Of a DNA stretch of 64,000 nt, positions 1,050 to 24,295 are shown piece by piece. A program made the position numbers and the translations under genes. The first letter of the stretch is position 1. The number at the start of each line of letters is the position of its first letter. The DNA is from an uncultured Gemmataceae bacterium. GTDB lineage: Bacteria; Planctomycetota; Planctomycetia; Gemmatales; Gemmataceae. A model generated the notes under the pieces. That model ran no database searches. It was not told the origin of the DNA and was given only the letters and a program-made list of their open reading frames with translations. Location: assembly GCA_963750165.1 (NCBI GenBank), contig CAVVPN010000001.1:439963-503962 (forward strand). Direction: 5' to 3'.

Positions 1050-3782
1050 TCAGGGCCGAGACAGAATCGGGTAACGGGTCAGGACGCCCTTGGCGATGGC
1101 CTGGAGCAAGCGTTCGGTTTCCGCCAGCCCCGGATCGTTGATGCGGGTGCGAACCTGCTGGCTTGCTGCCAAGTGATTCACCGCCGTCGCAAGCAATTCG
1201 CGCACTTCGGTAGGTGGATGATCGTTGCAGAAATTAGCCCGGCCCAGCTGTTGGGCCGCGCAGAAGGCAAGTTTCGGCGAGCAGGAAGTGGCCGAGGCCG
1301 ATTCCCCAGGCGTAGTCGCACGCAGGGTCGGCGGCGGCAATCAACGGTGGCTGTGACTTGGGAACAGTTTTCAGGGCCGTCCGTGCGTCGCGCTCGGCGG
1401 CGGCAGCGTCACCTTCCTCCAGCGCCACGGACGCGCGCAGCAACAGCAAGTCGATGTGGATGATCCCGAAGCCTCCCTCCCGGGCAAGCCGAAGTCCCTC
1501 GTCGGCGGCGTGCCGCGCTTCCCGCAGGCAACGGACTGTCTCGGGGCCGGCCGGCCCGTCAGCCTTTCGACGGGCGTCGGCGAGAGCGATGCTACCGCCC
1601 TCCCACGCCACCCAGCACAGTACCTCCCGGGCATCCCGCGCCACCGCCCACTCCTGGGCCTCGTGTTGCAATATGCGCGCAGTCGAGAACTCGCCGCGGA
1701 CGCGGGCCAGGCCAGCAAGCAGCAGATTGCAGCGCGGCAGATAATGGTGCTGTTCGCCGAAAATATGCCGCAGGACCACCTTGTTCGCCTCGGTCAGTTG
1801 CGCCGCTTCTTGATCGCGGCCGAGTCGTGCCAGCAGCCAGGCATGGTGGACGCCGCGCAAACGGTACAGCGGTCGCTCCTGGTGTTCGTCAAGGTGTTGC
1901 CAACGCAGGGCCGTCGCAAAGTCGGCCAGCGCCGCGGAGGTCTCGCCACGCAATGCCCGCGCGTAGCCGCGGTAGGCATAACTGTCCTTGCGCTCGAAGG
2001 CGTAAGAAGCACGTTCGGCCAGGCGGACGGCTTCCTCGGCGGCGGCCAGGCCCTCCGTCAGCCGGCCTGCCGCGAGCAGCAGGTCCGTCAAGTTTTGATT
2101 ACAAATCGACGCATTTTTCCAACTGCCCTCGGCCAATCGCATGGCGAGATTGCGCTTGTAGCAGCTTGCGGCGGCTTCGAGGCGGCCAACCTCCGAGAGG
2201 TAGAGCGCATAATCGTTGAGGAAGAAGCCGTGTTCGTGCGGCCGGAGTTGCTCCGGCAGCGGCGCTGCCTCCGCGGAACGGCCATCGACGAAAGCCCTGC
2301 AGATCCGTTCGCCCCGTTCGTAGGCTCCCAAACGGCGCCCCAGGTTCTCGTAGGCGCCGATCTGATACGAATACATCTCCCAGGCCGCGTCAGCGCAACC
2401 GGCCGCCAGCGTGTGGTAGACGATCTCTTCCAGCAGGTCCAGGGTATGAGCGTCCGAAGGATGCGTTCCTCGGCCAGGCAGTCCACCGAGCGATAGGATC
2501 AACCCCTCACGGGCGGCGTCGTGGCCAAGGCGGGCCGCTTCTTCATCCAGGTGTTTGAGAAAGCCATCGCGCACGGCCGGGTGAACCGTGTAGGTGGCGT
2601 CAACCACGCCGGAGAAGGCTGCGGGCCGAGCGACGGCGGAATCATGCGGCTGGTGTCGCGCGCGTGGCCCAAGCGCCGTCGCCTCCAACAACCGCATCCC
2701 CACCAGTTTGTCCATCCGCGCGCACACGTCGGGGAACGACAGCGCTGCCAGTTCGGGACCGGAGAGTTTGTCCTTGCCCGGCCCGGTGAAGACCAATGTC
2801 AGGAGTTCAGCATCGACGCCCAGCCGGAAGAGGCAAACCCGCTCCAGCAAAGCGAGGGCGGCGCGGTCCGTCCGCTCCAGCGCTTCGCAGTAGCGCTGGG
2901 CCACGCGCTCGAACCGGGCCGTTTGCTCGGCCACAGCGCGCAGCCGGTCGCCCGGAACAGCTGTCTCTTCGCCGCGCACTTCCGGCACAGCCCAGTCGCT
3001 GGTCACTCCAGTGTCGCCGGCCTCGAAGTGGGCAAGGTAGCCCCCGGCCAGATCCACCGTCAGGGCGTGGCGGCCGCAGTGGTGCGCCAGGCGTGCCAGT
3101 TCGGCGTCGGTCCCCTGGACACCGCGCTGCCGCAGCAGGGCAATGCAGGCCTCCTCGCTGATGTGCTCGACGGCGATCTCGCGGTAATTCAGGCCGGGAC
3201 GATCGCGCAGGTCGTCGAGGGCGAAACGAGTCGTGAGCAGGACGGCGGCCTCTCCGAGCCTGCCCTCGGCGGCGCGAAGGATGAAGCTACGCAGTCTGCC
3301 GTCCGCAATGAGCCCGAACGGCGCTCCGCGTAACCCGTCCTCCTGCACTTTCTCCAGACCGTCGAGGACCAGCAGGCACGGACCGGCGTAGTCGAGCAGA
3401 CGTACCACTTGCTCGTATGACGGTTGCGTCGTCTCGACCCGGTTGACGCGGTCCGTTAGCCAAGCGGCCAGTTGGCTGAAGAAGCCGTCCGGCGTCGGCG
3501 CGTCGTAGAAGGAAAAGACGAAGAGCCGGCGCGGCCGCGGCAGGGTCTCCTGTTTGCGCACGCCGAGTTCCACGGGTAGCACCCCCGGCAACACGCGTAG
3601 GAAGCGCTCCACGACAGCGGTCTTGCCGGCGCCGCCGATGCCGACGAGGGCACAGACCCCCTTGCCAATCTTCTGCCACCAATCGGCCAGGTGCGCAACT
3701 CGGGCCGATCCTGCCAGTCGCGGGCACGCAGCAGGGGGTGGGCGAAATGGAAGAGCTGTTTCTTCGGAGTTCGATCAGTCAT
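1050..3782 (-). CDS. STAND-like P-loop NTPase with C-terminal TPR repeats (two frameshifts, ~3695 and ~1260)
   Basis: Joining 3456..3782, 1234..3612 and 1050..1340 gives Walker A GIGGAGKT, Walker B CLLVLDGLE, GxP-like CGRHALTV and TPR helices. Confidence 0.85.
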
Positions 3783-3827
3783 GGGACACCTTTTCAGGGA
3801 ACGCCGCGAAGACCCCCTGACGGCTTG

Positions 3828-4975
3828 TCAGGGAAAGAGAGGTTTTTCAACGACCGCCTTGACCGCAGGCAATGGCGATGGGTCGCCCTGACAGATGAAG
3901 GCACCCCAGTAAAACGGCGCTGCAAACGGTCGGTGGTCGTCGGCTTTCGCCGCCAGTTCCTGAAGGCCACGACGGCTGTCCAAATTGCCAGAGGCGAGGC
4001 GTTCGATCTTGGCGGGGGTGAGCCACTCCTGTTTCAGTTGACCGATGGTGGCATCGCGGGTACATCGCTGCGCATCGCTGAGGGCGAGGTCGCGATCCAT
4101 GCGACGGTTGAGCAGGTTGTCGTAGAAGCGGTCCATAAGGAAGGCGGTTGCCAGGTCGGGCACCTTCCACAGGCTCATCACCAGCGTCTTCGCTCCGGCG
4201 ACGATGAAGGCTCGCCGCAGGCCGAAAACACCTTCCCCGGCATGGACCGCGCCCAGACCGGTGTCGCAGGCGGACAGCACGACCAACTCGGTGTCGAGCA
4301 AGTCGAGGCCGGAGACGTCCTCGGCGGTCAGCAGGCCGTCCTCGGCGTCCGGAGGCAGAGGATCACCCCTGAGGAAGGTGTTGGCTCCGGCCAGGGCCAG
4401 GCCGGAACGCAGCATCGGGTTTTCCATCCCCGGACCGGCGAGACGCCCGAAACCGCCGTCCTGTCCGCCGAGGAGTTCCAGGTTGCGGAAGTCGCGATTG
4501 GGGTCGCGCGTCTGATCCGGAAGGAAGAAACCGTGGGTGGCGAGATGCATGACACGCGGTGATCGATACGCCTTGAGCCGACCTTCCAAGGCGGCGCCAG
4601 CCAGCAGCGGTTCGACGCCGAGTCGTCGGGCAATCTGCTCGCCTTCAATGCGTGTTCCGGGGAGACGGTGGAAGTGGAACCGGTTGCTGCCCAGGTCGCG
4701 CGAGAGGCGACCGGCAGGGGCGCCGTTGGAACGACGATCGGGGTGGGCCTGGCGACTGGTACCGTCTGGCGGCGACCAAACAGCCGGCTCCAGAACCCTC
4801 GCCGTGGTGCTGGTTCGGCACCCTGCGGATGTTCGGTTCGAGCGGACTCGGATTCCAAACGGAGGTCAAAATCCGGATCAGTGACGACCGATGGTTCAGC
4901 AGGTTGCCGTCCGGACGGGGATTGAAAGGGCAGCACGTCGTGGCCGACACTCACATAGTGGATGTCCGCAAATTC
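3828..4975 (-). CDS. CHAT (caspase-like) domain protein, 5'-truncated, frameshift ~4700
   Basis: HLATHGFF, ENPMLRSGLALAGAN, LVVLSACDTG, PFYWGAF; the upstream part (HYVSVGHDVL...DPDFD) is in another frame; no N-terminal TPR region. Confidence 0.85.
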
Positions 4976-5139
4976 AATCGGGCGGCTCGAAGCGCGTCCT
5001 CACTCGACTCCCCTCCACTAACCTCCGGTAGAACTCCAACAGCAATCCCGCCGTGCCTCGTCCGGCTCCGGCCATAACGCCATCACCACTGCCCGCGCTC
5101 CCGCTAGCACGAAAGCCCGCGGCACGCCCACAGCAGTTA

Positions 5140-6328
5140 TTACCTCGGCAACTAACATCGTCACGTTACTCCGGCTGCCGCATATTGCGTCATCGGGTGC
5201 CTGAAGTAACTCATGATCCGTCCGGGGAGGCCGGTCAAGTGCTCCATGAATTCCTCCAGCTTGGTGCGCAACTCCTGCCGGTCCCTGGGCAACCCGCGCG
5301 CGTAGACGTTCCCCTTCAGGTCGTTGTTCAGGTACTCCACCGGGTTCCGCTCCGGCGTCTTGACCGGCAGCGTGAACAACTCGATCTGCTCCTCATGCGC
5401 CCAGACCCAGTCCTGCACCGCCGCCGCCAGGTGCGCCGGCAGCGGGTCCACGATCAGGAACACCTTCCGCGCCGAAGCGGCCACCAACCGCTCCAGGAAC
5501 CCCAGGAACAGCGCCGCGTTCATCATGGCCGTGTACACCTGGAAGTGCAACTCCCCGTCGTTGGTCACGGTGGACAGCAGGTTGACCCGGGCCTTGTCCC
5601 CCGACACCGGCAACTCCGGCGTCTGCCCCACGCGCGCGTAGCCGCGCCCCGGGTGGTCGTTGCCGCTCAGGCCCGTCTCGTCCCCCCAGTGGATCTCCGC
5701 GCCCTCCCGGGCGGCCCGGGCCTCGATCTCCGGGTAGGTGCTGTCCAACCACTCGCGGACCTCGTCGGCGTCCTGGCCGCGGGCGTGCCGCCCGGGCCGC
5801 TTGCTGGTGTAGCCCCAGCGCCGCAGGTACTCCCCGACCGTGCGCACTGGCACCCAGCGGCCGTACTCCCGCGCGATCAGGTCGCGGACGGCGCGGCGCG
5901 TCCAGAGCGGGGCGGCGATGTCGAGTTGCTCGGGGCTGTGGTGGTCGATCAGGTCTTGCAGGTGGCGGGCCTGGGCGTCGTCGAGCACCCGGCCCGAGCC
6001 CGTGGGTCGGCCGGTGCGGTCGCCGGGCAGGGCGTCCCGGCCGCCGGTGCGGTAGGCGCTCCACCAGCGGCAGACGGTCTCGCGGGCCACGCCGAGGGCG
6101 TCGGCGATGGTGGTTTGGGGCAGGCCCATGCTGCAGGCGCGGACAGCGCGCAGGCGGAACGCCTTCAGGGTCTCGTCGGACAGCTGGCGCGTGTTGGGGA
6201 TGGAGATGGCCATGATGCTTGCTCCTCCCGCTGGCGCGGGAATGGCGAAAGTCACCCCCTGATAGTATTGTAGGCGACACCCGAGGTCTGGACCGCGAAG
6301 CTGGTGACAATGTTAGACGCCGGGGTAA
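5140..6328 (-). mobile_element. IS630-family insertion sequence
   Basis: Imperfect ~25-bp inverted repeats (TTACCTCGGCAACTAACATCGTCAC / GTGACAATGTTAGACGCCGGGGTAA); TA duplication at 5138-5139 and 6329-6330. Confidence 0.95.
5161..6213 (-). CDS. IS630-family transposase
   Basis: HTH region, [24 protein letters not shown] motifs; GGAGGAG RBS before ATG 6213. Confidence 0.95.
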
Positions 6329-6690
6329 TACATCGACCCACCTCACCTCCACCTGCAGATCCGCCGACAGCACGACCACTTTCGTCTGTCTCAGGTCGAG
6401 CCCGATCACATCCCACGCCGTCAACCGGCCTTCCGCAGCGTCCCGGTTAGCGCCTGCCAGGGCGACCCTACCCCTCTCGGCGCCGGCTGAGCTGACTCTG
6501 ACCTCCCGGTTTCCACTGTAATTGATCCGTCCCCGGTGCGTCTTTCCATCACAGTGGATGAAGAGCGTCACTGCCCGAAACCTGTTATGCCCCGCGATTC
6601 AAGGAGTCCACATGACCACGAACATGCCACTGCTGAACAGGTCCGAGTTTCTGGAGTGCCTGGGTCTCGATGGATCACCTCGAAGGGCCA

Positions 6691-8000
6691 TCACGCCGGC
6701 CGGGCGCTGACGTGGGGCACGGGGATCACCAGGATGCGCCGGTCCCTTTCTGGGGCCGGCCCTTTCTTCGCGACCAGAATTTCCATACCCCGCACCGGTG
6801 TCCTGCGCCCCGCGTCAGCGTCCTCCGAGACAAGCCCAATCAGTTCCATCCAGTGGAGCCACTCCAACGGCGTTCGTCTCACATCCTGTGCGGACCAGTG
6901 AATCAGGAGGCGTTCGGTCCCTGCGGGGGGTGTCAGCCGGAAGACCAGGCCACAGCGCTGCCCTGCCCGGTACAGGTTTTCCGGTTCATTTGGCTTCGGC
7001 AAGCCGACCTGCACATTGCCGGAGGAATCAAGGACCAGCACCGTGAGGTAGCCATCGACGGAGGCCAGAGCTTCGACTTTCACCAAGTCACCCGTCGTCG
7101 CCGGCTCCGGCCGGCCTTCTTTCACGAGAGGACGGAATGTCGTAGGTTCGTCGGCACGGGCGACCGCGATGGCGGCCTGCAATTTCACCGGCACTAGCAT
7201 GTCCGAGTTACTGTTCAGCACGTGCTCCGTGAGCGCCTGCCAGCGCACCTCGCGGAGCTGGGTGAGGAAAGTGGGAAGGTCGGCACGTCGCTGGGGATCG
7301 GGCTCCAGGCCACTGGAGATGACCTGGCGCAGTTCTTCGGGAAGAGACGGCCAGTTGGCGTGCTCGGCCGGCGGGGCGTGTTCTCGGGGGCGTGTACCCG
7401 TCACCAGGTGCAGCAAAGTGGCGGCCAGCGAAAAGACATCCGATTTGGGCGACGCACCGCCGTGGTAGACCTCCGGGGCGATGTAGCCCCTCGTTCCGGC
7501 GCCCGGCCTGCCTGATCCACGGCAATGGCGATGCCAAAATCGGCGAGAACCGCCTCGTCGGTGTCCACGTTCAACAAGATGTTGTCGGGCTTGATGTCCC
7601 GGTGCAGCATGCCCTGAGCATGGACATCGAACAGGGCATCGGCCACGCCGGCCGCATAGCGGGCGGCCTGGGCCCATGGCATGGGCCGCCCAGGAGATGT
7701 CAGTTTTGCCAGGCAGCCGCCCGAAAGATAGTCCATGACCAGAAAGCAGTTCGTGACGCCATCCTTGAGATAGTGAACCTCCACACGGTTGCGGTGCCTG
7801 GGAAGCTGGGCTAACCTCTGCGCTTCCTCGATCAATCGCCGGACCTCGCGCTCGCTGAAGCTCACCTTGTGAAGAACCTTGATGGCACGGAACACCTTCA
7901 TCTTCACATCCAGAGCCTTCCAGACCTGGCCAAAGGCGCCGCCGCCGAGGTTGTCGAGAAACTCGAAGCCGTCGAGTTTCGGTTTGTTCGCGAGAGTCAT
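6691..8000 (-). CDS. Ser/Thr protein kinase with C-terminal DUF4384-like domain (frameshift ~7505)
   Basis: LGGGAFGQVW, RAIK, HRDIKPDN, DFG, GYIAPE; tail TGDLVKVE...DGYLTV...LTPPAGTERL is paralogous to 21221..22894. Confidence 0.9.
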
Positions 8001-8056
8001 GTCATGTCTCCGGAATTATGGAAAGTGGCGAGGAGTCGCCCTGGCAAGATCCCGAT

Positions 8057-11000
8057 TTACGTCGGAAATCGGAACCGATGCCTCCTTTGCCGGTAACGGG
8101 CCAGCAAGCCCCACAAATACCCGGGAGCCGGCAGAGCGGCCGGATCGCCGAACAGGGTCAAGGGTGCCCAGAACAAGGGAAAAGTACCAACGGCAATGGC
8201 CTCGCGCTGAGCCAACGCAAGGGCCGTTGGCAGTTCGTGCAGCAGGAGGTGACGGTAGAAGGACCACATGAGCGGCACCGTCTCCTCGTCGGCTAAGGGC
8301 CACAGACCCCCCAGCACCGAACGCACCCCAGCGCCGATCAACCCCGTGACCTGGCCGAACATCCCCAGTCCCTCCAATGCCCCAACTTCTCCCGAGTGAC
8401 AGGCGCTGAGCGTAACCAGTGCCAGACCTTGGACCGGTTCTTCCAACCATTCGAGGGCGTGAATGACTTCTCCCGATGGCAAGAGAAGTTCAGCCGCCAG
8501 CGGGTGTGCGCTGGGGGAGTCGGCGTGGCAGGCGAAGTGAACCACGCGGGCTCGAGCCAGCCAGCGGCGCAGTCGGGGACGGTCGAGAGTCTCCGACTGC
8601 AAGATCCGGCCACGCAGAAACGCAGCCGCCACCCCTTCGGCTTCTCGACTCGCACCGAGGAGCTTATTGGGAGTTACGATTGATGTCACCATAGTGATGA
8701 CTTGGCCCTTCTCGCTCCTGCTGAGATCATGGGGAGGCCACAAATTCTTGAGCCGATCTCGGAGATCTTTGATTTGCTGTACTTGTTCCAGACGCTGGTT
8801 CTCATTCGTGTCTGCGACCATCTTCCCGTTACGGTCAAAAATGCGGAAGTGAAGCACGTTTTTTACGCTGGCCACAATGATCAGGTTCTTGCCCTCAGTT
8901 GGGATATCCTTTTCTTCATTCGGCGCGAACATCAAATGCAGATTACGCTCCATATTGGAGCTTTCGGCCACGGCGATCACCGAACGCCAGGCGCCCCGGC
9001 ACTGCCGACGTTTACGGTGCTGGTGAACGAATAGCGATCCACTAAAGGTGGTGACCACCGCAACTGATTCGATCAGGTAACGCCCCGCCAATCGCAGCGC
9101 GTGCAAGGGCACGCCGTGGAGGTCTCCCTCGGGTACCCACAAAAGGGAACCCGGAGAACCCGAGAGGTCGGCGATGGTCGCGGCAAGCGCCGCTCCCAGG
9201 GGACCTCGGCCGAGTGCTTCCAAATGGCCGTCGAATTCCGCTCGTCGGCGCGGCCCCAGGTCGACGCGATCTTGGTAGTCGTTTATTTGATTGCGGACGC
9301 AGTTGCGCAGCCCGTTCAGCTGCGAGCGCACCTCCTCCGCCGACCCGGGTGCGAAATGCACGCAAGCGCGGGCATTTCTACTGACAGCGAGCGCGTAGAC
9401 ACCCTCCTCAGCCAGAACCGGTGCGAAATAGCGCGTAGCCGGGTGCAGTAGCCGCTGAAGATCGTCCAGATCGACCACCGCGGGCAGCAAGCCGCTCACG
9501 GGTCGTTCCCGGTCGATCAGGTGACGCTCGAATAGTCGATCTCGTTCGGCGAGCAATTCTCCCTTGCGGGTTTCAAGCCAGACCCGGCGTTGTTCCGGCA
9601 AGTGGGTTCCGAGTTCACCATGGACTGCTGTTAGTTCACACATCAGTCGGGCCACCTCCGGACGGGTCATCAAAGAGTCCTGAGTGCTTGCGGAGCCGAG
9701 CAACTCGAGAAGCAGCCGGCCACGCTCGCGCTCCTGCCAGCGAAACACGGCAGCCGCATCCCCTCGGCGACAGGCCGCGAGTAGGAGGTGGCGTAACACA
9801 CTGACCCGTTGCCGGCGGTAGCCTTCGACAATGCCGATCGATTCCGGCAGACGCGCCGCTTGTTGCTCAGTGAGCTCAACCACCTCCTCGAATAACCTCC
9901 GCGCCAGGCCCTCGTCACCCTCCACAGAGGCGGCCAGGTGGCCCTGAGCTTGGAGTGACCTTGCCAGCACCTCGGGCAGGCGCAAGGACCGTCCCAGCGT
10001 CTCCGCCTGTCGCAACCAGGACCGGGCCTCGTCAGCCGTAGCCGTCAACAGCCCCAGCGCGAGGCTCAGGCGGGCGCGCCGTTCGGGTCCTTCTGCCTCC
10101 TGAAGGGCCGCGGCGTAGAGCTCCAATGCGCGGGCGGTATCGCCCTGGTTGGCCGCGAGTTGGGCTTGTAGTTCAACCGATGCATCGGCCACCTCGCCCC
10201 CCTTGATCAGGAGACGCACCATTTGAAAAAGGGGTTGGAGTTCATCGGGCAATTGCGCGGGTGACAAACGGGAGAGAAATTGGTCGGCCTCGTTGCGAAC
10301 GGAGCGGTGCTGGCCCAGGTCGAGCAATACGAGAATCCGACGCAGGGCAGCTTCCTGTACCTGGAATGGCAGGCCGTATGACTGGACTTGCTGGTAGTGC
10401 TTCAGAGCATCCCCCAGATGCCCGCGGAGATGATCGATCCGCCCGAGTTGTAAGAAGGCATCCGCCCGAACCGGATCGAGGACCGCTCCCCGGCAGCGTT
10501 CCACGGCGCGCAGCCAGCAAGCCCGGGCTCGACCAAGGTCGCCTGCTCGGTCCCAGGCGCGCCCCTCCTCACAATCGAGCAGCGCCAATTTTTCATGTTG
10601 CTCTGCTTCCTCCAGACGAATCCGGCAGCGGTGTAACTCCTCAGTCAGCACTGAAACATCGCCTACCATCAGACGCACTCGCGAGGCACGCAATAGCAGT
10701 TCGGGGGCGGCGGCGAATCCATGTTGCGGCACCTCGGCCAGAAGTTGCCTTGCCTCCGCGGGCCGACGGCTGCGCGCATAGGCCTCGGCCAGCAGCAAGC
10801 GCACGCGGCAACTGAGGTCGGACGAAACAGACCCGCAATAGGGCAACAGAGGCTCCAAGAATTCGGCGCTCTGGCGCGGTCGGCCAGCCAGAAGGGCGAC
10901 CGGAGCGGAGACAAAGGCAGCCCGAAAGGGTGGCGACTTGTCTGGGAAACGGGGATCGAGAGGGGTATTGGCGGCCTCATTGCGATAGTCGGAGGCCCGG

Positions 11001-13891: not shown

Positions 13892-15075
13892 TATCTATCT
13901 GCGGCCATCAATTTTTGCGCGACCTGTTTGGCATTTTGATTGGTGTTGAGTTGGCAAACCAGGACCCGTTCCGACAGGGTCAGTTTCCGTGGCATGTTCT
14001 GTTCGATGTTCGCCAACCACTGGCGCCGTTCCTGCTGCGTTGGTTTGCGAAATTCATCTTCCTGAGCAGGCTGACCGGCGACGTCCTGGAGGCTCTTCGG
14101 GGAGGAGAGAGCGAGATGGTAATATCCAGATCTCAACGTCGAGTGGAAGTCGTGATGCCAGTCGAGTTGAAAGTGCAGTTGCCTCCGCATTTGGCCGGCT
14201 TCGGTGACGACGTCTCCTCCAAGAGCAGCCAGCCCCCGGGTCACATCCCCGCGTTGACCGGCCTGTGAGCCGGGCGGAGCTTCCGGGATCACCGGCCTGG
14301 CACCCACCTGGGGAACCGGCCCGATTCTGGGTTCTTCAGCGGGGGGCGGTACGAGTTGCATGTTGCGCAGGCGCCGTGCGATTTCGGGCTGGTCTTCTTG
14401 CAGGGCCCTGGCGATGAGCCCAAGTTGAAGCTTCTTGGCCAGTTTCGGGAATCCTGCCTCAGTGATTTCCTGGAGGTCCTTGATGAGGTCCGCCGGGTCG
14501 GGAGGCGTCTTCCAGGACTTTGCTTGCCATTGGGCAGCGTCTTCGGTCGCGAGCACCCCACGCCACAGACGGCGCGATCTCGCCGGCAGCACCTCGGCGC
14601 TCTCCTGAAGGAGGGAACCGACGGCCAGCACTTTCTTTAAGCTGGTCAACCCGTCCAACTGTTCTTCGTGGACGAGTCCCGCCAGCAGCTTGCTCCGTTG
14701 TCTGCCGTTGTCAGGAAGGTTGAAGAGAATTTGACGTCGGGACAACAGTGCTCGTTCTGTCCCGGCGGTGGGCACGCCCTCCACCCTGCTGATCAAGCGG
14801 GTGACGGGCATCTTGCCGAAAGCAACTTTCGAGGTAATTCCGCCGAGAGACGGGCGCAGAGTAACCCGGAGGTTTCCCGGAGGGAAGTTAGGCCGAGGCC
14901 GCCCGGCACCGGGACCCGGGTTGACGTGGATCCCGGCACCCCGATTAAACCGCACCCCGGCACCGAACGGTGGTTTGGGGAGAGGCACAGGCCTGCGGAA
15001 GATCCGCGACCAGTCCGCGCCACCAACCATGCCGACACACACCAACAATGCAACAACGGCGGTCCATTTCTTCAT
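13891..15075 (-). CDS. Exported hypothetical protein
   Basis: Signal peptide MKKWTAVVALLVCVGMVGGA, Pro/Gly-rich N-terminus; stop abuts next start. Confidence 0.7.
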   Translation of the reverse strand: MKKWTAVVALLVCVGMVGGADWSRIFRRPVPLPKPPFGAGVRFNRGAGIHVNPGPGAGRPRPNFPPGNLRVTLRPSLGGITSKVAFGKMPVTRLISRVEGVPTAGTERALLSRRQILFNLPDNGRQRSKLLAGLVHEEQLDGLTSLKKVLAVGSLLQESAEVLPARSRRLWRGVLATEDAAQWQAKSWKTPPDPADLIKDLQEITEAGFPKLAKKLQLGLIARALQEDQPEIARRLRNMQLVPPPAEEPRIGPVPQVGARPVIPEAPPGSQAGQRGDVTRGLAALGGDVVTEAGQMRRQLHFQLDWHHDFHSTLRSGYYHLALSSPKSLQDVAGQPAQEDEFRKPTQQERRQWLANIEQNMPRKLTLSERVLVCQLNTNQNAKQVAQKLMAADR

Positions 15076-15205
15076 GAGCGTTTCTCCTCATCCCATCATG
15101 GAAGGCGATTCTGTTACGTGTAACCACAGCCGGAGGGCACACTTTTCCGTCGCTTACGCTGGCGAATTGTATACCCACTTTAGGTCCCCTGATTCTGCAC
15201 CCGCG

Positions 15206-18200
15206 TTACCCCAACCCATAAAGGGTCAGGGCTCCCCATACCGTTGGGTCAGCGTGCGTTGTCCGCGAATGCAATTGGGCAGCGCGAAGCGCATCCCTGC
15301 TCGACTGCCCCTCCACTAACCTCCGGTAGAACTCCCCTAGCAACTCCCTCCGGGCCTCGTCCGGCACCGGCCACGACGCCGTCACCACTGCCCGCGCCCC
15401 GGCCACCACGAAGGCCCGCGGCAAGCCCACCGCGCCCACCTCGGCCCCCGGTTCCTCCACCGGCAGGCTTGCGGACAGCACGACCACCTCGGTCTGCCCC
15501 AGTGCGATGGCGGTGACATCCCACGCCGTCAACCGTCCTTCCGAGGCGTCCTGGTTCGCGTTCGCCAGGGCCAGGCCTATTCGGCTCAACGGATTCTCCC
15601 ACGCCGCCGGTCTCACCGTTGCCGGTGCCGTCTCCTTCGGGGGGACGGTTTCGCTCGCCGCCTCTCCCACGGCGAAAGCGTGCGTCGCCAGATGCAGAAC
15701 GCGCGGCGCACCGCACTCCACCAACCGCGACTTCGCCGCCTCTCCGTCCACCCAGGCGCGCACGCCGAGCACCTTGGCGATTTGCTCGGCCTCCGCGCGC
15801 GTCCCGGGCAGGGCAGTGAAACGCAGCCGCGCGACGGCACTGGGGCACTGGTTCGGAACTCGATCAGACTGATAAAAGCCAAGCTTAATCAGGCGCAGAA
15901 CCGCTGTCCACAGCCGACTCCACAATTTTCTCCCCGATTGCTGCAATGGCTCAACCGCGTCGTGCCGCTGTGGCGTCACCGGGCCGAAATCCGCAGCGCC
16001 AATGACCACGGCCGCCCCAGCTTCCCCCTCCGCCGGCACCGTCCGTAGCAGGTCGCGGCCGGTATACACCTGGCTAATCGTGTAACGGTCGATGAGATAG
16101 CCGCCGTCCTCCGTCGGCAGGAGGTTGAAGGGCACGCGGTGCAGTTCGCTGTCGGGTGCCAGCACCAACCTTTGACAGCCGTCCAGGGCCGGTATCAGCC
16201 TGTCAAAGACCACAGAGCGCAGGGCCGAACCCTGCACTCGCAGAGCCGCCGTGCGCTCCGGTCCCGCCACGCTGGTCAACACACGGCGGTAGTCGGTCAC
16301 CAGACGGTCGATGATCTCCGCCGAACCGAGGTCGATCAGCCGCACTGCATCGGGACGACCTGCCGGCAGCACGAACGCCAGGTAACGGGCCGGCGGCCGC
16401 GGTGCCTCGGCCTGCGTGAACAGTGTCCGGAAGTCCCAATCCGGCGAGCGGACGAACTCGACCAAGACGCTCCCCTCCGGCAGAGCTGCCGCAACCGTCC
16501 GCCGGTCTGCAGTCCGCAGCCGCCGCCCAACGGCCAACTCCGGCACCCGTTCGGCCAACTCCGCCTCCAGACTTTCCGCTCGTGTTTCCCAGTCCTCCAG
16601 CAAGCGCTGGTGCGTCACCTGACCTTCCGCCCCCGGACCATTGCGGCGCCGAACCAACGCTTGGCGACGCAGCCAGTACAGGCTGCGTCAGCCGCTCCGC
16701 CTGGGCCGGGTGCTTCGCCTCCATCACTGTTTTGCGACAGGCCGACAGCAACTCGACCCAAAGCGACTTGCGCCGCAGCACCACGTCGAAAACCTTGCCC
16801 GCCGCCTCAGGCGTGTCGGCCAGGCGCCGCGCGACCAGCGACAGGTACGTCTCGTAACGGATGTTCAGACCCTGCCCGCAGCTGGCTCGCGATTTACCGG
16901 AGTGCAGGGCCAACAGAGAAGGCAATAAGGCGTCGTCGAGGGCGGCCAACTGCTCCAACAGCGTCACCGCTTCCGCCTCCCGTCCCGTGGTCGCACACAG
17001 TCCCGCAAGCAGGTGCAAACTGACGGCGAAATCCGGATGCTCTTGCCCCATCGCCGTCCGCTCCAGACGCAATGTCTGCCGCAGCAGTGGTTCCGCCGTC
17101 GCGATCTGCCCCTGGCTGAGGGAGACCTGGGCCAGCCCCTTCAACAGCGGCGCGTGCAGCCGACCCTCTTCGGGAGCCGACCGCCGCACCATCTGCAGCG
17201 CCTCCCGGTAGGTTGCCTCCGCCGCCCGGAAATCGCGCCGTGTCCACTCGTGGTCGCCACGCAGCTGCAGCGCGCCCGCCAGAACCGGGTGATCCTCCGG
17301 ACACAGCCGCCGCAGCACCTCCAGGTGCTGCCGGACGTACGGCTCGGCCGCCCGCCCGTCGCCGTAATTGACGTACAGATCGGCCAGGACGCGCAAACCG
17401 TCGGCGTACTCGATGTGATCCTTGCCCAAGGCCTTGCGCAGGATCGCCAAGGCCTGCTGGCAGTGGGCCTCGGCCTCCTGCCGCCGGTCCAGCGTCCATT
17501 TCAGCCCCGCCAGTTCGGTCAGCCAGCGGGCCAGGACCGGCTGGTTCGGGCCGTGGGCCGCCTGGAGGATGTCCAACGCCTGTTGGTACAACGGCTCCGC
17601 CCGCTCGTACCGTTCTGTGGCATGGTACAGTCTGGCCAGCGCGATCAGGTAGAACGCCGTGTCTGGGTGGTCGTCTCCGCGTAGTGCCTGGATCACTTCA
17701 ACGGCCTGGCGGAGCAACGGCTCAGCCTGCGCCGGCTCTCCCAGTGCGTGGTATGTTAGCGCCAGGTTCATGTGGTCGGCGGCATGGAGGGGGTGGCCTT
17801 CGCCCGGCGTGGTCTGGGCGGCTTCCAGCACGTGGCGCAACAACGGTTCAGCCGCCAGGTGGTCGCCGACGGCAGCGTACAGTCGGGCGAGGTCGCTCGT
17901 TATTGGTATCAGGGGAGCTTCGTTACCCCTGAAAACCTTGCGGCCCAACTCCAGCGTCCTCCGCAACCCCGCCTCCGCCCGCTCGAAGTTGCCCCGGTCC
18001 TGGTAGACAAGGGCCTGCGTCCACGTGCTGCGGACGTAGCCGAGCGACTCCTCGCCTCCAACGGCGCGGAACACCTCCACAGCCTGATGGGACAGCGACT
18101 CGGCCTCGTCGAGCCGGCCCGCGAGGCGACACCACTCTGCCAGGGATTGCAAACTTTCGGCGAACTCAACCGAGGTCTCCCCTGGATCGGACCGACGAAT

Positions 18201-20074
18201 CTCCAGCGCCTTGCGAAGATACTGCTCCGCCGTCGTCAGGTCGCCGACCTGCTGGTGGAGAATGCCAAGGTCGGTGCAACTCTCCGCGACAGCGGGATGG
18301 TGCTCACACTCCATCTCAACGCGCAGGGTCAGGACCTGGCGAAAGCGCACTTCGGCTGCCTGCAGGTTGCCCACGGCAAGGTAGAAATTCGCCAGGTCGC
18401 GCAGAGCACGAGCGAACTCGGCGCTACGTTCGCCGCGCTGACGCTCGAGATTGACCACCTGGCTAAACAGCGATTCCGCTGTGGTCGTGTCACCCAAATC
18501 CTGATACATGCTGGCCTGATAACGCAACCACTCGATCCGTTCTGGATGCGTCTCACCGCGCGCCTGAAGAAGGAGTTCGCCGAGTTCGCGGGCCAGCGGT
18601 TCCGCCTGGTGCAACTTACCTGTCTCCATGTACAGGACAATCAATTGGCGCAATGCGTGCCGGTAGGTTGATTGTTCCTCCGGCGCCGCCGCGACGCAAG
18701 CGGCCTGTGCCTGCCGGTACAGCCCTTCGGCCTCCGCGTTTTCGCCGGCGTCCCGGTAGGCCTGGCCCAGGGCGCCCAGGGCAGCGGCCAGCAGACCGGG
18801 ATGTCCCTCACTATCGGCCCTGGCTCGTTCCACGGCCTCGAAGGCAAGGGAGCGGGCCGACGCGAAGTCCTGGCGGTTGAGCAACACTTCACTCAAACCC
18901 AGCAACACGGGGACTACGTCGGCAGCGACGGCGTCGGGGGAGTTGACGACGATGTCCTGGGCCTGGTGCAGCAGCGGTTCGGCCTCGGCATGTCGGTTCT
19001 GCGCCACAGGTTAATGGCCAACCGGACCAAGGAAGTGCTCAGTGAAGGTGACGACCCGAACCATTCGCGATCCAGATCGACGGCCTGGCGAAAGAGCGGT
19101 TCAGCCTCTGCGCACTTACCGCCTTCCTGTAGAACGGCAGCCAGCGTCTGCAGACTATCGCTGAAATAGATGTGCTTCTCGCCCAGGGCGCGGCGGGTGA
19201 TCTCCAGGGCGCGACGGGCAATGGGCTCAGCTGCGGCTGCAGTTTCAGGATCCTGCTGGCAGCGCACCAGGGCCAGCGTTTCGAGGCTGCTAGCGTAATC
19301 GGCGTGGTACTCGCCCAGAAGGCGGGCGCGGATGTCAACGCTGCGCGCGGCGAGTCGTTCGGCTGCAGCCAAATCGCCCCGGTCCAGGGCGAACCCGGCC
19401 AGAGCGTTCAGGCTACGGGCGAATTCCGGGTGCTCTTCGCCCAGCGTCGTTCGGAAGATGTCCCTTGAGCGGAGGAGTAGCCGTTCCCCCTCGGCAAGAC
19501 GGCCGCGCGCCAGGGCGATACGTGCGAGGATGGCCAAACTGCGAGCGAAGTCGGGGTGCTCCTCGCCCAGGGCTCGCTGGCGGATTTCCAGCGCTCGCCG
19601 GCTCAGGGCTTCGGCTTCGCCCCACCGGCCCAACAGGTCGTACAGGGTTCCGAGATCATGTAGTGTGCTAGCGCAGTGAAGGTGTTCGTCGCCCAGTGTG
19701 CGGCGGCGGATGTCAAGGACTCGCTGGAAGAGGGTCTCGGCCTGCTTGCACTTGCCCATCGCCTGGCACAACCGACCCAGGTCGTTGAGGGCGGCGGCGT
19801 ACTCGGGATGGTCCTTACCCTGAGTCGCACTGCGGATGTTGAGGGCCTCCAAACAGAGCGGCTCGGCCTGGCTGTGCTGGCCCAGTTCGCGGTTGGCTTC
19901 GGCTAACTGGCTCAGCATGTCGGCAAGTTGTGGCGAGCCTTCGCCGTACTCCAAACGGGCCTGTCCGCAAGCCTGTTGGGCCAGGAGAAGGGCCTGGGCG
20001 TAGCGGCCCTGCCGTAGTAGGTCCGTAACCTGTTCGTTCAAGTTGTGTATCATCTTGTCAGCCAGGATGGTCAT
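15206..20074 (-). CDS. Giant TPR-CHAT protein (~1600 aa; frameshifts ~19005 and ~16675), catalytic Cys replaced by Ser
   Basis: Many 42-aa TPRs (LGEEHPDFARSL), then CHAT: LVEFV, PDSELHRVPF, HLATHAF, VVVLSASLP, PTVWGALTLYG. Confidence 0.88.
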
Positions 20075-20214
20075 TTGCGCCTCCTCAATGGGTGCGTTTC
20101 AGCGCGCGAACTGGAGGACGTGCTCTCGGCACCAAAGAGACGGACAAAGGACTGACATGTTACAAAGAAATGTTCGACGTGGCGAAAAAGGATAAGGAAG
20201 CCGCGAGCAGGCGT

Positions 20215-20432
20215 TCAGGTTACGGGCCCTTCGCCCTTTTCCGGCGGCGGGGTCGGTCGGCCGAAGGAAAACAGGCGCAGGAAACGGTGCCAGAGGCTGG
20301 GCTTCTTGCAGGAGACGGGCTGACCACCAAGCCAGCGCCCGAGGTCGTCGGCCAATGCGGAGGCGCTCGGATAGCGTCGGGTGGGATCTTTTTCCAGGCA
20401 CTTCAGACAGATGCTGTCCAGGTCAAGCGGTG
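20215..20432 (-). pseudogene. Relic C-terminal lobe of a Ser/Thr kinase
   Basis: Manual translation [39 protein letters not shown] (kinase subdomain XI); no upstream kinase sequence. Confidence 0.8.
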
Positions 20433-20631
20433 TGCATGGATATGCGAATGTTCCGAAGAAAAGACAGGGTCCGATCTGGGATCAAAACTGGACAAACTTC
20501 CTTGTCGGCTGACGGGTCCGGCGGTTATCATACCAGGGTGCGATGACTTCGAGATGCGAAGCGGTAGAGATTTTCTACCGTAACATCTGTCCCCCAATGA
20601 GTTCTTTACAGCAGAGAACCGGGAAACCGAA

Positions 20632-21231
20632 ATGGCGAACCTCGATCAGCACCAATTGCTGCCACTGCTCCACCAGGCGTTGGCCGGGGATGCCTGCGCC
20701 TGGAACGACTTCTTCGGACATATTCGCAGGTATGTGGCCGCCGAGGTCCACAAGGCGCTCGGGTCGAACGGCGACTGGCCCCTCGACCATTCCAACCTGA
20801 TCCAGAGCACTCTGCGGCGGGTCTGGGAGCGGATCGGCAAACAGTTCGCCGGTGGTGCCGAGGAAGCGACGCTCCGCCGCTTCCTCGCCTGGGTGAGCAC
20901 AATCGTAAGCAACCGCGTCCATGATGAATGGCGGAGGATCCGAATCGTCGCCGGGGGCGATGCCGTGGACGACATCCCCCAGCCAAGCCGGAGCGGATCC
21001 GCGGCCAGGCGCGACCGCATCGCCGCAGAGTTGGCCGGGGCCCTGGCTGAACTCCCGGAGCGGCAGCGCCAGGTCGTCGAACTGTTCTGGTTCGAGGGGC
21101 TGTCGGACGTCGCCATCGGCGCCCGTCTGGGATGCCAACCGCGGACGGCCAGCGTCATGCGCTGCCGAGCACTCCGCACCCTGCGAAACCCGAGGCTCCA
21201 GGCTCTACTGGAGGAAATTCATGACAGTTGA
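20632..21231 (+). CDS. ECF-type RNA polymerase sigma factor
   Basis: Region 2 (AGDACAWNDFF...FLAWVSTIVSNRVHDEWR) and region 4 (LAELPERQRQVVELFWFEGLSDVAIGARLG). Confidence 0.9.
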   Translation: MANLDQHQLLPLLHQALAGDACAWNDFFGHIRRYVAAEVHKALGSNGDWPLDHSNLIQSTLRRVWERIGKQFAGGAEEATLRRFLAWVSTIVSNRVHDEWRRIRIVAGGDAVDDIPQPSRSGSAARRDRIAAELAGALAELPERQRQVVELFWFEGLSDVAIGARLGCQPRTASVMRCRALRTLRNPRLQALLEEIHDS

Positions 21232-22894
21232 CGAAGAACTGGCCGCCTGGGGGGAACCTCCCGTGAGTCCCGACGAAGAGCCTCTCCTGGCTTTCCTTGA
21301 CCACTTCCTGGAAAAAAGGGCGCGCGGCGAACTTATTGACGTGGAGGAATTGGTCACGGTGTTCCCGGGTCTGCCGCCGGAAGGCCCCGCCCTGGCCCGC
21401 ACGGCGACGGGACTCGAAGAACTCGTAGCCAGCGTCCTGGACCACTCATCCGTCCAGCATGGCAGGAACGCTCCGCCGGACGCGCCGACCGAACTCTTCG
21501 AGCAGCCCACTCTTCCCGAGGGATTTCCGGGTCCAGCGCCGGCCGGCTTCCGAGTCCGGGCCTGCATCGGAGAGGGCTGCTTCAGCAAGGTCTGGCTGGC
21601 CGACCATCAGCGCCTCGGTATTCCCGTGGCGCTGAAGGCCCTGCACCTAGGCGCCACAGAAGAGACGCGGGCACTAGCGCTTGGTGTGCTGCAGAGCGAG
21701 GCGCGGGCCCTTGCCCGGCTCAACCATCCCAACATCGTCCGCGTCTATGGCCTGGAGCAGGTTGAGGGCGAACACTACCTTGTCCTACAGTTTGTGGACG
21801 GTGGTTCACTTCAGGCCCGCTTGACGAAAGACGGTCCGCTGGGCTGGGAGACTGCGGCACGCTACCTCGCCGATGTCGGCGAAGCTCTAATCCACGTGCA
21901 TGCTGCCGGAGTCGTGCATCGCGACATCAAGCCAGCTAACATCCTGTGGGACTCCTTGCAGGACGAGGCGTTGCTAACCGATTTTGGCCTGGCGACACGG
22001 CTCACAGAGACAAAAGAGGCAGCGGGAACGCCATTGTACATGGCCCCAGAGGCATTCGCCGGACGCAGCACCCCGGCGAGTGAGGTGTACGGTCTGGCAG
22101 CCACCTTATTCGCCCTGGTGACCGGTCAGGTGCCGTTCCCGGCCATGACGCGACGCGAACTGTTAGAGCGCATTCAGCACGGTCTGCCCGATCGCGAGCC
22201 GCTGTTCGCAGGCGTTCCCGAAGCGCTGGAACGTCTCATCCGCGCCGGCCTCGCGGCAGCGCCCGAGCGCCGTCCTGAGTTGCCCTTGTTTGTGGAAACT
22301 TTGCGTGGCGCGTTGAACCAACTCCTGGCCGACTCGCTCCTGCTGCCGACCGCCGGAACGACCATGCCAGCCGCGGTTGACCTGCGTCTGCGAGTTTCCC
22401 GACTGGACAGCCGCGGCGGCTGGACCCAGGTGGCCTCGACCCATCCTGAGCCCGCTGGACTTACACGCGACATGACCAAGGTGCCGCCCAAGCCGGAATA
22501 CGTCGGCGTACGGACTGGCGACCGGGTTCGTGTCGAAGTTCTGACCAACCGCGATGGTTTCGTGACCGTATTCAACGTCGGGCCAACGGGTCAGTTGAAT
22601 CTACTTCACCCCGACCCCGACGCATCTGCGGCCGTGCAGGCGAACCGGAACCTGCAGGTTCTCGACGTGGCCCTGACGCCACCGGCAGGCCGCGAGCGAT
22701 TGTTTGCCGTCTGGAGCCAGGCGCCGCTGCCACTGTCGCTCGCCGATCTGGTGCATCTGACCCAAGGCAGCGTGCCGGTGTCGGCGTGCTACCGGTCCAC
22801 CCGCAACATGGAACGCGTGCAGGCATCAGTTCAGCAATTACATCGGGAGGATTGGCAAGCAACGGTGCTTGAATTAGACCACCGAGATTGTTGA
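21221..22894 (+). CDS. Ser/Thr protein kinase with C-terminal DUF4384-like domain
   Basis: GGAGG RBS, ATG 21221 overlapping the sigma gene end; IGEGCFSKVW, VALK, HRDIKPAN, DFG, YMAPE; tail GDRVRVEV..DGFVTVFNVGPTGQLNLLHP. Confidence 0.92.
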   Translation: MTVDEELAAWGEPPVSPDEEPLLAFLDHFLEKRARGELIDVEELVTVFPGLPPEGPALARTATGLEELVASVLDHSSVQHGRNAPPDAPTELFEQPTLPEGFPGPAPAGFRVRACIGEGCFSKVWLADHQRLGIPVALKALHLGATEETRALALGVLQSEARALARLNHPNIVRVYGLEQVEGEHYLVLQFVDGGSLQARLTKDGPLGWETAARYLADVGEALIHVHAAGVVHRDIKPANILWDSLQDEALLTDFGLATRLTETKEAAGTPLYMAPEAFAGRSTPASEVYGLAATLFALVTGQVPFPAMTRRELLERIQHGLPDREPLFAGVPEALERLIRAGLAAAPERRPELPLFVETLRGALNQLLADSLLLPTAGTTMPAAVDLRLRVSRLDSRGGWTQVASTHPEPAGLTRDMTKVPPKPEYVGVRTGDRVRVEVLTNRDGFVTVFNVGPTGQLNLLHPDPDASAAVQANRNLQVLDVALTPPAGRERLFAVWSQAPLPLSLADLVHLTQGSVPVSACYRSTRNMERVQASVQQLHREDWQATVLELDHRDC

Positions 22895-22904
22895 TTGCAA
22901 GGGC

Positions 22905-23038
22905 TCGACTTGGCTGGCTTGATGCCGTGCAGTCCATATCAAGCGAGCCGCAACATGGTGCGCGTCAAGCAATCGGTGCAGCAGTTGCCGGCTGAGGATT
23001 GGCAGGTTGTGGTGCTGGAGCTGGAGCATCATGGGTAG
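22905..23038 (+). pseudogene. Diverged duplicate of the kinase C-terminal ~40 codons
   Basis: PCSPYQASRNMVRVKQSVQQLPAEDWQVVVLELEHHG* versus VSACYRSTRNMERVQASVQQLHREDWQATVLELDHRDC*. Confidence 0.8.
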
Positions 23039-23093
23039 CGATCCGCGACCAGTGCGAGGAACTAAACTATCCAATATCCAGTAGAGACTTCCC

Positions 23094-24044
23094 ATGCACG
23101 AAAATGACGTTTTAACAAAGCTCGACATGCTCAACCAAACAACGGTGGAACTGTATGAGCAAGGTCAAATTCAGCAAGCGTTTGCAATTGCCCGCCAGAA
23201 GTTGCAATTGGCGCAAACGTATTTAGGACCCAACAATCTCCGTACCGTTGCCAGCCTCGACAACCTTGGGGAAATGCTACAGTCCATGGGCGAACTGGCG
23301 GAAGCGCGGACCTACTTCGAGCGGTCCTTGGCCATCACGGAAATGGTGCTTGGCCCCGAGCATCCCCACACCGCCGTCAGGCTTAACAACCTAGGTAATT
23401 TACTGCATGAAATGGACGAATTGGCGGGAGCGCTGCCCTGCCACGAGCGCGCCTTGACGATCTTGGAGAAGGTGCATGGCCCAGAGCATCCCGATACTGC
23501 CACCAGCCTCAACAGCCTGGGTTTATTGCTGCGAAACATGGGTGACTTGGTGGGAGCGCAGGCCCACCTCGAACGTGCCCTGGCCATCAGGGAGAAGGTG
23601 CTGGGCCCTGAACATCCCAGAACCGCCACCAGTTTCAACAGCCTGGGTGAATTGTTACGTGACATGGGCGACCTTGCGGGAGCGCAGGCCTACCTCGAAC
23701 GTGCCCTGGCCATCAGGGAGAAGGTGCTGGGCCCCGAGCATTTCGAGACCGCCATCAGCCTCAACAACCTAGGCGCCCTGCTGCAGGCCATGGGCGACCT
23801 GCCAGGAGCGCGGGTCCACCTTGAGGTGGCGTTGACGATCAGGGAGGAGATGCTGGGTCCCGAGCATCCCTCCACCGCGGCCACCTTGAACAACCTGGGT
23901 GAACTATTAAATGACATGGACGACCTGGCGGGAGCGCGGCTCTACTACGAGCGTGCCTTGATTATTTGTGAGAAAGTGCTGGGCCCTGAGCATTCAGATA
24001 ACGCCACCTGTCTCAGCAATCTGGGCGGCCTTATGGGAGGCTGA
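23094..24044 (+). CDS. Tetratricopeptide repeat protein (42-aa repeats), possibly 3'-truncated
   Basis: Repeated ALAIREKVLGPEHPxTAxSLNNLG; ends mid-repeat. Confidence 0.9.
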   Translation: MHENDVLTKLDMLNQTTVELYEQGQIQQAFAIARQKLQLAQTYLGPNNLRTVASLDNLGEMLQSMGELAEARTYFERSLAITEMVLGPEHPHTAVRLNNLGNLLHEMDELAGALPCHERALTILEKVHGPEHPDTATSLNSLGLLLRNMGDLVGAQAHLERALAIREKVLGPEHPRTATSFNSLGELLRDMGDLAGAQAYLERALAIREKVLGPEHFETAISLNNLGALLQAMGDLPGARVHLEVALTIREEMLGPEHPSTAATLNNLGELLNDMDDLAGARLYYERALIICEKVLGPEHSDNATCLSNLGGLMGG

Positions 24045-24239: not shown

Positions 24240-24287
<48 letters not shown>

Positions 24288-24295
24288 TAGTAAGT

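Follow-up and report, generated by a model that had tools for sequence, protein, structure and literature searches.

The window considered here is a stretch of 64,000 nucleotides from an uncultured Gemmataceae bacterium (assembly GCA_963750165.1, contig CAVVPN010000001.1, positions 439,963 to 503,962 of the forward strand), and all positions given below without a contig label are counted from its first letter. Between 1050 and 24044 it holds a dense cluster of genes for caspase-like CHAT proteases, protein kinases, an extracytoplasmic function (ECF) sigma factor and a STAND NTPase, which an earlier note, made from the sequence alone, had taken for one proteolytic signalling or immunity system without a CRISPR component. 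Six-frame translation and a Pfam scan recovered every gene type that had been named, i.e., the STAND-TPR protein, an intact TPR-CHAT, a giant TPR-CHAT devoid of its cysteine, a further CHAT, two kinase-DUF4384 proteins, the sigma factor, WD40/TPR proteins, and membrane and exported proteins. The locus is a scrambled mosaic of two conserved modules together with remnants, and not one 23-kb machine.

Module I consists of an ECF sigma factor, a kinase-DUF4384 protein and a TPR-CHAT protease, hereafter CHAT(B), which is truncated here. The sigma gene (20632..21231, + strand) carries a serine, Ser54, in region 2.2 and overlaps the kinase gene K2 (21221..22894, +), so that a Hanks kinase with intact, active-looking motifs stands at position +1 of the sigma factor; K2 begins with a separate N-domain (residues 1-75), lacks a membrane helix, and bears two short tags in its DUF4384 part, at Arg416 (RDM, 22466-22474) and Arg528 (RNM, 22802-22810). 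A remnant of a second DUF4384 3' end (22949..23028, +), likewise with RNM, is followed by a TPR-only gene (23094..24044, +) that ends 190 bases short of an att site without any CHAT domain. As this gene occupies the slot after the kinase in which TPR-CHAT(B) sits in other genomes, we read it as a truncated TPR-CHAT(B) that apparently lost its CHAT domain at the att end.

Module II consists of a secreted protein X, membrane genes and the intact protease CHAT(A). X (13891..15075, -) is a predicted secreted, all-helical protein with an RNM tag at residues 237-239 (14359-14367), where a long loop begins. It is followed by a membrane WD40-TPR protein (11772..13891, -), by a four-helix membrane protein without Pfam match (11077..11775, -), which we had also considered as a sigma factor and rejected as such, and by CHAT(A) (8057..11080, -), with the catalytic pair His852/Cys894 and neither signal peptide nor membrane helix. 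The three junctions between 15075 and 8057 each overlap by 1-4 bases, in line with the tight coupling described before. CHAT(A) and a CHAT(B) fragment elsewhere in the cluster pass the Pfam cut-off for CHAT (PF12770) with His and Cys in place; the giant CHAT passes it as well, with Ser for Cys.

Both modules recur in other genomes. CHAT(A) has 109 matches, 87 of them close homologues; in genome contigs a search with the single CHAT(A) sequence gave none, and a search with the alignment did find matches. Among the closest homologues, those with a name are assigned to Gemmataceae and Isosphaeraceae, and His852 and Cys894 are invariant in an alignment of 71 sequences (CHAT(A) and 70 homologues). 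The distribution is patchy: of 252 family genomes searched, 8 carry CHAT(A). X precedes CHAT(A) in all eight other loci with upstream context, and a kinase-DUF4384 gene precedes X in seven of them; four further CHAT(A) loci end too early to show what lies upstream. One genome (G405:C18) presents a giant TPR gene, sigma, kinase, X, WD40, a membrane gene and CHAT(A) in a single run, in which the WD40 protein is a single gene and the position of the four-helix protein is also occupied, and another (G412:C7) holds orthologues of the dead giant CHAT, of CHAT(B), of the second kinase-DUF4384 gene K1, and of the sigma-K2 pair.

A search for DUF4384 revealed 32 kinase-DUF4384 places in 23 of the 252 genomes. 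Of the 31 outside the present genome, 18 lie no more than about 10 kb from a CHAT or C14 protease gene, and nine show sigma, kinase-DUF4384 and then TPR-CHAT(B), the sigma gene being out of view on three short or broken contigs. Contig sizes common to CHAT(A) and kinase homologues number 5 against 0.48 expected, which is a proxy for linkage only. A phylum-wide search with the whole kinase alignment matched 1 of 401 genomes; with three candidates scored per genome, this figure is no measure of range. One module copy resides on a Tundrisphaera plasmid (L006), and a plasmid search returned distant CHATs only. Three of the five CHAT matches of the 9.6-Mb genome, and both of its DUF4384 matches, fall within the cluster; for random placement of three of five CHATs within 12 kb P is 5e-5, in a calculation that ignores local duplication, and the clustering of the genes exceeds chance. 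Given about 170 kinase and about 104 ECF matches genome-wide, a sigma-kinase pair is by itself ordinary. The co-occurrence of CHAT, kinase-DUF4384 and ECF sigma that the earlier note had proposed to look for is present in other genomes; the STAND gene is unlinked to them in the loci examined.

The N-domain of K2 is the first part of the evidence on function. In a folded model of K2 (mean predicted local distance difference test score, pLDDT, 88.9) a helical N-domain, a kinase and a beta-sandwich are distinguished, and in the predicted complex, which was computed with alignments built in this analysis, residues 1-75 contact residues 127-196 of the sigma factor and cover the -35 recognition helix of region 4. 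The score is 0.81 (runs 0.81, 0.71 and 0.86), with 0.00 for the best of three controls, contacts that agree between runs to at least 57%, and a partner pLDDT of at least 69; the score mark was reached by 116 of 157 solved pairs versus 2 of 215 mismatched ones. K2 is accordingly predicted by the models to bind the sigma factor as an anti-sigma. The N-terminal slot is filled in 21 of 21 places with an upstream sigma gene (15 with a K2-type domain, two with a diverged one and four with an HxxxCxxC zinc finger) and empty in 6 of 6 without sigma; four places could not be judged. The plasmid copy (L006), in addition to these four, has the zinc finger as well. K1 (6691..8000, -; tag RGM) has neither upstream sigma gene nor N-domain. 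In three genomes a sigma gene is followed by kinase-less alleles, in which the N-domain is joined straight to DUF4384 (L141:6259-6957, L143:9560-10270, L144 about 9775-10500). These alleles keep the anti-sigma/DUF4384 pair and both tags and lack a protease in their vicinity; as CHAT(A) modules are present elsewhere in two of the three genomes, the kinase-less pairs may be addressed in trans. A membrane helix or hydrophobic segment was found in 0 of 120 kinase homologues and in 5 of 87 CHAT(A) sequences. Foldseek with K2 returned kinases only, and an Atlas search returned DUF4384 clusters below 0.9. We also observed a kinase-DUF4384 homologue fused to TIR (P0160) and a fusion of sigma and K2 (P0126), for which an assembly frameshift may be responsible.

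The second part is a tag of the form R-[D/N]-[M/L/I], which links kinase and protease. Both tag arginines of K2 (Arg416, Arg528) are conserved without exception among 99 sequences, and each is followed by D or N and then by M, L or I. CHAT(B) carries the same three residues as its kinase, in a loop before the core, and they are identical in all nine sigma-kinase-CHAT(B) operons (six RNM, two RDI and one RDM; P 0.004 by permutation, 0.024 if each genus is counted once). A C14 caspase behind the K2 orthologue has RNM just past its catalytic Cys, and the kinase before it has the matching RNM. In 6 of 8 loci the tag of X is that of the kinase at the locus (P 0.025); X of the present locus has the rare RNM form, as does K2. 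The X family comprises 286 clusters; among 150 sequences the tag R is kept in 95% and the D in 96%, at a helix end before a long loop, and of 78 full-length members 55 are predicted to be exported. Searches with X in Pfam, NCBIfam, PADLOC, the Atlas and Foldseek were all negative, and the top rows from VIA-align, generic helical bundles (Z 9.4, root mean square deviation 2.6, 93 aligned), leave its fold neither named nor excluded. The idea that X is specific to CHAT was rejected, as it occurs without CHAT in 15 further stretches. In several genera X is paired with a membrane protein Y in a conserved, unnamed unit that has no CHAT (L152-L166); in genus g321 the X-Y order is reversed and the tag mostly missing. 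A C14 caspase behind the K2 orthologue is fused to two kinase domains (L114:7536-10694).

Two readings of the tag have to be weighed. According to the literature, separase and an orthocaspase cleave after Arg, and on this basis we propose that the tag arginine is a cut site. In the alternative reading, the tag is a docking or pseudo-substrate site by which kinase-DUF4384, and X, hold the protease shut, similar to securin and separase or to PCi and PCaspase; phosphorylation and release of the anti-sigma would then switch the sigma factor, which would transcribe the protease as a downstream effector. The occurrence of two tags per DUF4384, one of them in a helix, is in agreement with docking, as is the position of the promoters before protease operons. 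The same holds for Ser54, which is conserved in 17 of 18 module sigmas and was matched in this analysis to the ECF43 phosphorylation place (PMC8999054); this conservation fits an added control by phosphorylation, by analogy to ECF43. That PCi inhibits PCaspase is stated in 10.1101/2023.06.23.546230. The kinase-less alleles, by contrast, retain the anti-sigma/DUF4384 pair with both tags, which shows this pair to be independent of the kinase. Caspase-fold enzymes are usually processed in the linker after the catalytic Cys, and this is the very place where the C14 partner bears its tag. Taken together, we consider docking unlikely.

The third part is a promoter type that ties the two divergent units together, as judged from its positions. 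A site TGTAAC-N16-CGTC (20139..20164, -) lies 89 nt before the leftward operon, which starts with the giant gene, and the full site is kept 114 bases before the orthologue of that gene in G412. Before the sigma gene lies a promoter-like site (20579..20605, +) with the -35 element CGTAAC and a degenerate -10 element. The pattern recurs among the module sigmas: of 17, 12 have GTAAC in the 120 bases ahead of the gene, where 1.1 would be expected and 2000 shuffles never gave more than 5, and 8 have the full TGTAAC-N16/18-CGTC. The sites suggest use by the module sigma. A further ECF-type promoter-like site (505..532, -; TGTAAC, a 15-nt spacer and CGTC) is located 110 nt before a small secreted-protein gene. 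Two small secreted-looking genes follow such a site, one from 422 leftwards and one at G000:C1:438832-439623; one is rich in His and Lys, the other has VRPQA repeats and a PDZ-like end, and both are candidate outputs of the sigma factor.

From these observations we propose, with a probability of roughly 55%, that the core of the locus is a cytoplasmic, protease-controlled sigma switch, which probably works like the CRISPR-linked Csx29/Csx30/sigma switch in the absence of CRISPR. The N-domain of the kinase is predicted to cap sigma region 4 and so to hold the sigma factor inactive, and the DUF4384 tag of the kinase, judging from sequence, is repeated in a loop of the partner caspase-fold protease. 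The protease would be switched on when its TPR scaffold binds a cytoplasmic ligand, and would then cut after the tag arginine, in itself and in the kinase. As a result, the anti-sigma would be released or destabilised, and phosphorylation of Ser54 by the freed kinase may follow. The freed sigma factor could transcribe its own and the leftward operon from TGTAAC-N16-CGTC, and the giant dead CHAT may act as a sensor or decoy. At the present locus module I, its own protease lost, would be wired by promoter and RNM tag to module II with X, the membrane genes and CHAT(A). CRISPR-independent proteolytic signalling by ECF sigma, kinase-DUF4384 and TPR-CHAT, as had been suggested for the cluster, is supported by the conserved neighbourhoods, the predicted sigma-kinase complex, the co-varying tag and the shared promoters.

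Several observations weigh against this sigma switch. No protease is found near 13 of the 31 kinase-DUF4384 places, including all three kinase-less ones, several of these places being on short contigs, and the two nearest kin of K2 precede a C14 caspase, not CHAT. The match of tags is statistically weak: in a tag-masked tree the nine matched operons reduce to about four lineages (L146, too short, was omitted), which by hand count corresponds to a chance of 1 in 12. Three CHATs outside the operon order (L115, L123 and L150) were left out of the tag count; L115 combines a CHAT bearing RDL with a K1-type kinase bearing RGA, and the CHATs of L123 and L150 are tagless. CHAT(A), the sole intact protease here, has no conserved tag column, and Arg528 lies within a helix in the K2 model. 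The tagged X is predicted to be exported, yet CHAT(A) and the kinases appear cytoplasmic, and the 15 further stretches have X without a nearby CHAT. The promoter type, finally, is common, with 370 such sites beside the numerous ECF matches in the genome.

More tentatively, the protease-controlled switch may be extended to a wider picture, to which we give clearly less credence than to the switch itself. The module would be a free-living, cytoplasmic sister or ancestor of the Craspase output arm. Its TPR-CHAT sensors would respond to a danger signal inside the cell and find their targets through a three-residue tag that they bear themselves; as this tag would change in step in protease, kinase and secreted partner, insulated channels would result. 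The N-termini of planctomycete ECF-linked kinases would then generally be anti-sigmas, and X, normally exported, might trip the protease if it is cytoplasmic after envelope damage.

The mosaic nature of the locus raises the question of how much of it is still alive. It is possible that recombination in the island has piled up pieces of related modules that no longer cooperate, whatever an intact module does elsewhere. Remnants are indeed numerous. The CHAT(B) C-terminal fragment (3828..4957, -) keeps His and Cys, is 74% identical to the intact gene in G412:C7, and has its TPR part and tag loop deleted. Next to it lies a second, degraded copy of the dead-CHAT 3' end (4963..6560, -; 78-84% nucleotide identity to 15260-15571), split by an IS630-family insertion sequence (IS) element with a DDE_3 transposase and TA-ended inverted repeats (5153..6315, -). 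The "further CHAT" of the earlier note is present as a CHAT; its N-terminal TPR part is wholly lost and it is fused behind the IS630-split remnant. A degenerate copy of the CHAT(B) 3' end (635..892, -) forms with 3880-4139 a direct repeat (78% at the nucleotide level) that encloses the STAND gene. The giant TPR pseudo-CHAT (15206..20074, -) retains His, has Ser in place of Cys, is without the tag loop, and is dead in G412:C7 too; a C-lobe of a further Ser/Thr kinase (about 20220..20440, -) is left beside it. Genuine decay is seen in the truncations, the duplicated remnants and the IS insertion. These features speak for a graveyard, as do the CHAT-less TPR gene next to the att site, the 90-residue insert of foreign origin in CHAT(A) and the separation of sigma-K2 from X.

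Frameshifts are of a different kind. Six occur in four genes of the assembly, two in the STAND gene (near 3690 and 1258), one in K1 (near 7505), one in the WD40 gene (near 12700) and two in the giant gene (near 19010 and 16670). When control genes from other loci were mapped onto the assembly, frame changes were counted in 9 of 38, with 9 in total over 41.6 kb and some of them possibly due to the queries, so that the six in 19.2 kb compare to 4.1 expected (P 0.24); the frameshifts were therefore rejected as proof of decay. This rate, the different break positions of the G412 orthologues and the 13 STAND homologues of 69-87% identity, which are all whole, fit long-read or assembly error; IS copies in the genome differ by single-base gaps as well. 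Sigma, K2, X, the membrane gene and CHAT(A), moreover, are open with all catalytic and tag residues kept, and the tag of X is of the rare RN form, in agreement with K2. We therefore regard non-cooperating debris as an improbable account of the locus compared with a working switch.

The insert in CHAT(A) deserves separate mention. It is an in-frame insertion of 90 residues within the CHAT domain (8675..8944, -), has about 49% GC and is missing from the 70 homologues. Related sequences (L182-L186) are found in 25 of 73 searched genomes of family f107, with up to nine matches each, and in 0 of 65 other genomes of the window's family; their hosts, classified by eye, are unrelated proteins, namely an efflux pump and Calx-beta-like, repeat and signal-peptidase-like proteins. 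Its sequence and distribution mark it as a mobile coding element from another family. We take it to be reminiscent of the palindromic elements of Rickettsia.

The STAND gene (1050..3782, -) has Walker A (GIGGAGKT) and Walker B (LLVLDGLE) motifs followed by a TPR region, and is devoid of an effector domain, as are its 13 closest full-length homologues. It could belong to a single immune system with STAND-TPR or the giant TPR protein as the sensor of a phage protein, which would set off a CHAT cascade and so kill or arrest the cell. The position in a tRNA-Asp island with integrases and IS elements, the patchy spread of CHAT(A) and kinase-DUF4384 and the plasmid copy are what such a system might look like, and STAND relatives do bear C-terminal TIR, PNP, SEFIR or CHAT, while the effector-less STAND here adjoins CHAT(B) pieces. 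One metagenome contig size, 31,201, is common to a close STAND homologue and a kinase homologue, and the characterised CHAT-sigma systems are all linked to defence in the published reports (10.1101/2022.08.17.504292, 10.1101/2023.06.23.546230, PMC11506125). Neighbourhoods tell otherwise: CHAT or DUF4384 occurs in 0 of 14 STAND loci and this STAND in 0 of 56 module loci. Neither toxin nor nuclease, cyclase or pore former is among the Pfam matches of the cluster, and PADLOC gave generic kinase and TPR matches only, with none for STAND. The inclusion of STAND in one system and the immunity reading offered in the earlier note are not supported by these data, and an all-inclusive immune machine is in our view quite improbable, slightly more so than a mere graveyard. 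STAND probably is a passenger of the island, judging by its gene neighbours; the common contig size and the flanking CHAT(B) 3'-end repeats leave room for a loose link to the modules, which may exist. A role in defence without STAND is somewhat easier to conceive, with the odds still against it. A RAMP gene search of the 93%-complete genome gave no match, its positive control being detected in 5 of 14; no CRISPR array is present in C1:425000-470000, and three array-like repeats lie elsewhere in the genome. SAVED was absent from the Pfam scan of the cluster and from a genome search whose positive control was silent. The STAND gene belongs to a large family (P0398-P0499) with the NTPase first, TPR next and the TIR, PNP, SEFIR or CHAT effector C-terminal, the reverse of the usual order.

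The cluster lies at the right end of a 33.5-kb island. Its att site, as previously indicated, is the 3' half of tRNA-Asp(GTC) at 24237..24289 (+), which duplicates an intact tRNA-Asp 33.5 kb upstream (G000:C1:430671-430745). The island also carries an integrase, IS630 copies and a large GTPase-like gene; the latter, its first cargo, encodes 760 residues with a P-loop and an integrase-arm-like start (L001:6750-9029, G000:C1:431749-434031) and had no Pfam, NCBIfam or PADLOC match at the cut-offs applied. A third, shorter tRNA-Asp 3' piece (G000:C1:243562-243594) is followed by the motif TTTGGGGATAAT, common to both island ends. Right of the att site, a second element (24536-29512) contains an integrase-like gene, a helix-turn-helix gene, DUF6930, a fragment of an ADP-ribosylglycohydrolase and an R2K ATP-grasp ligase. 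Two multi-copy IS elements follow in tandem at 37529-41011, and several paralogous genes with 144-base repeats at 53176-64000 reach the contig end.

For the questions of substrate choice by CHAT proteases and of their role outside CRISPR, the module offers both a candidate substrate and a candidate cut site. It suggests a source for the protease/anti-sigma/sigma arm of type III-E CRISPR. It also challenges the description of kinase-linked ECF sigmas as devoid of anti-sigmas, in a lineage whose genomes each encode more than 100 kinases and sigmas. The module is directly testable thanks to copies that are intact and soluble, namely L130 (tag RDM), L135 (RDI), L140 (RNM) and L006.

A literature search for the gene combination retrieved known systems only and no account of this module; preprint supplements (e.g., the Csx30 alignments) and some planctomycete ECF work fell outside its scope. 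The closest published system is type III-E Craspase (Csx29, a TPR-CHAT, with Csx30, Csx31 and RpoE/CASP-sigma). DUF4384 is one class of the Csx30 C-terminal domain (10.1101/2022.08.17.504292), and a cut in the C-terminal part of Csx30 relieves sigma inhibition (PMC10028731). Both systems have a cytoplasmic TPR-CHAT, an ECF sigma, and an N-domain that binds sigma, by prediction in the present case, with a possible DUF4384 C-domain, and the kinase-less alleles have exactly the Csx30-type layout; a sequence search of one such allele against PDB sequences found no Csx30 chain. By contrast, neither Cas7-11 nor an array was seen here, no Csx31 was seen, though no Csx31 model was searched, a Ser/Thr kinase is placed between the two domains, and protease and target share a tag.

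The SAVED-CHAT/PCaspase/PCc-sigma/PCi/PCk cluster of Haliangium ochraceum (10.1101/2023.06.23.546230) likewise combines caspase-fold proteases, more than one in number, with a sigma factor and a kinase. The present locus differs by its TPR scaffolds, with neither a SAVED sensor nor a cyclase found, and by the absence of a C14 PCaspase from the locus, the only C14 match of the genome being on another contig; there the sigma factor itself is cut, whereas here the kinase-borne anti-sigma is the likely target. In DdvA-DdvS of Myxococcus xanthus (PMC11506125) TPR-CHAT is coupled to anti-sigma control of an ECF sigma, and self-cleavage has been proposed. DdvA, however, is one membrane chain with a periplasmic CHAT, in contrast to a separate soluble anti-sigma and protease, with a kinase included. 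For the antiviral, Avs-like STAND proteins the likeness extends to a STAND NTPase with a repeat region, and the gene here has neither an effector domain nor a linked effector gene.

Among ECF groups, ECF43 (EcfP/PknT, EcfK/PknS) and the planctomycete ECF59, 61, 62 and 217 (PMC7826278, PMC8999054) resemble the module in having a Hanks kinase at +1 and Ser/Thr in sigma region 2.2. They are described as being without anti-sigmas and with mostly membrane-bound kinases, while here a soluble kinase with a predicted anti-sigma travels with CHAT. According to the supplement of PMC7826278, DUF4384 is present in putative ECF25 anti-sigmas, which are membrane proteins without kinase, and ECF54 has TPR-CHAT neighbours, and is actinobacterial without an anti-sigma. 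The EACC2-caspase/ECF/TPR neighbourhoods (PMC8195603) place CHAT or caspase genes beside ECF sigmas as well, with, by description, another constant domain. We regard the module as a variant of the Csx29/Csx30/sigma logic that lacks the defining features of Craspase, of DdvA-DdvS and of the PCaspase cluster.

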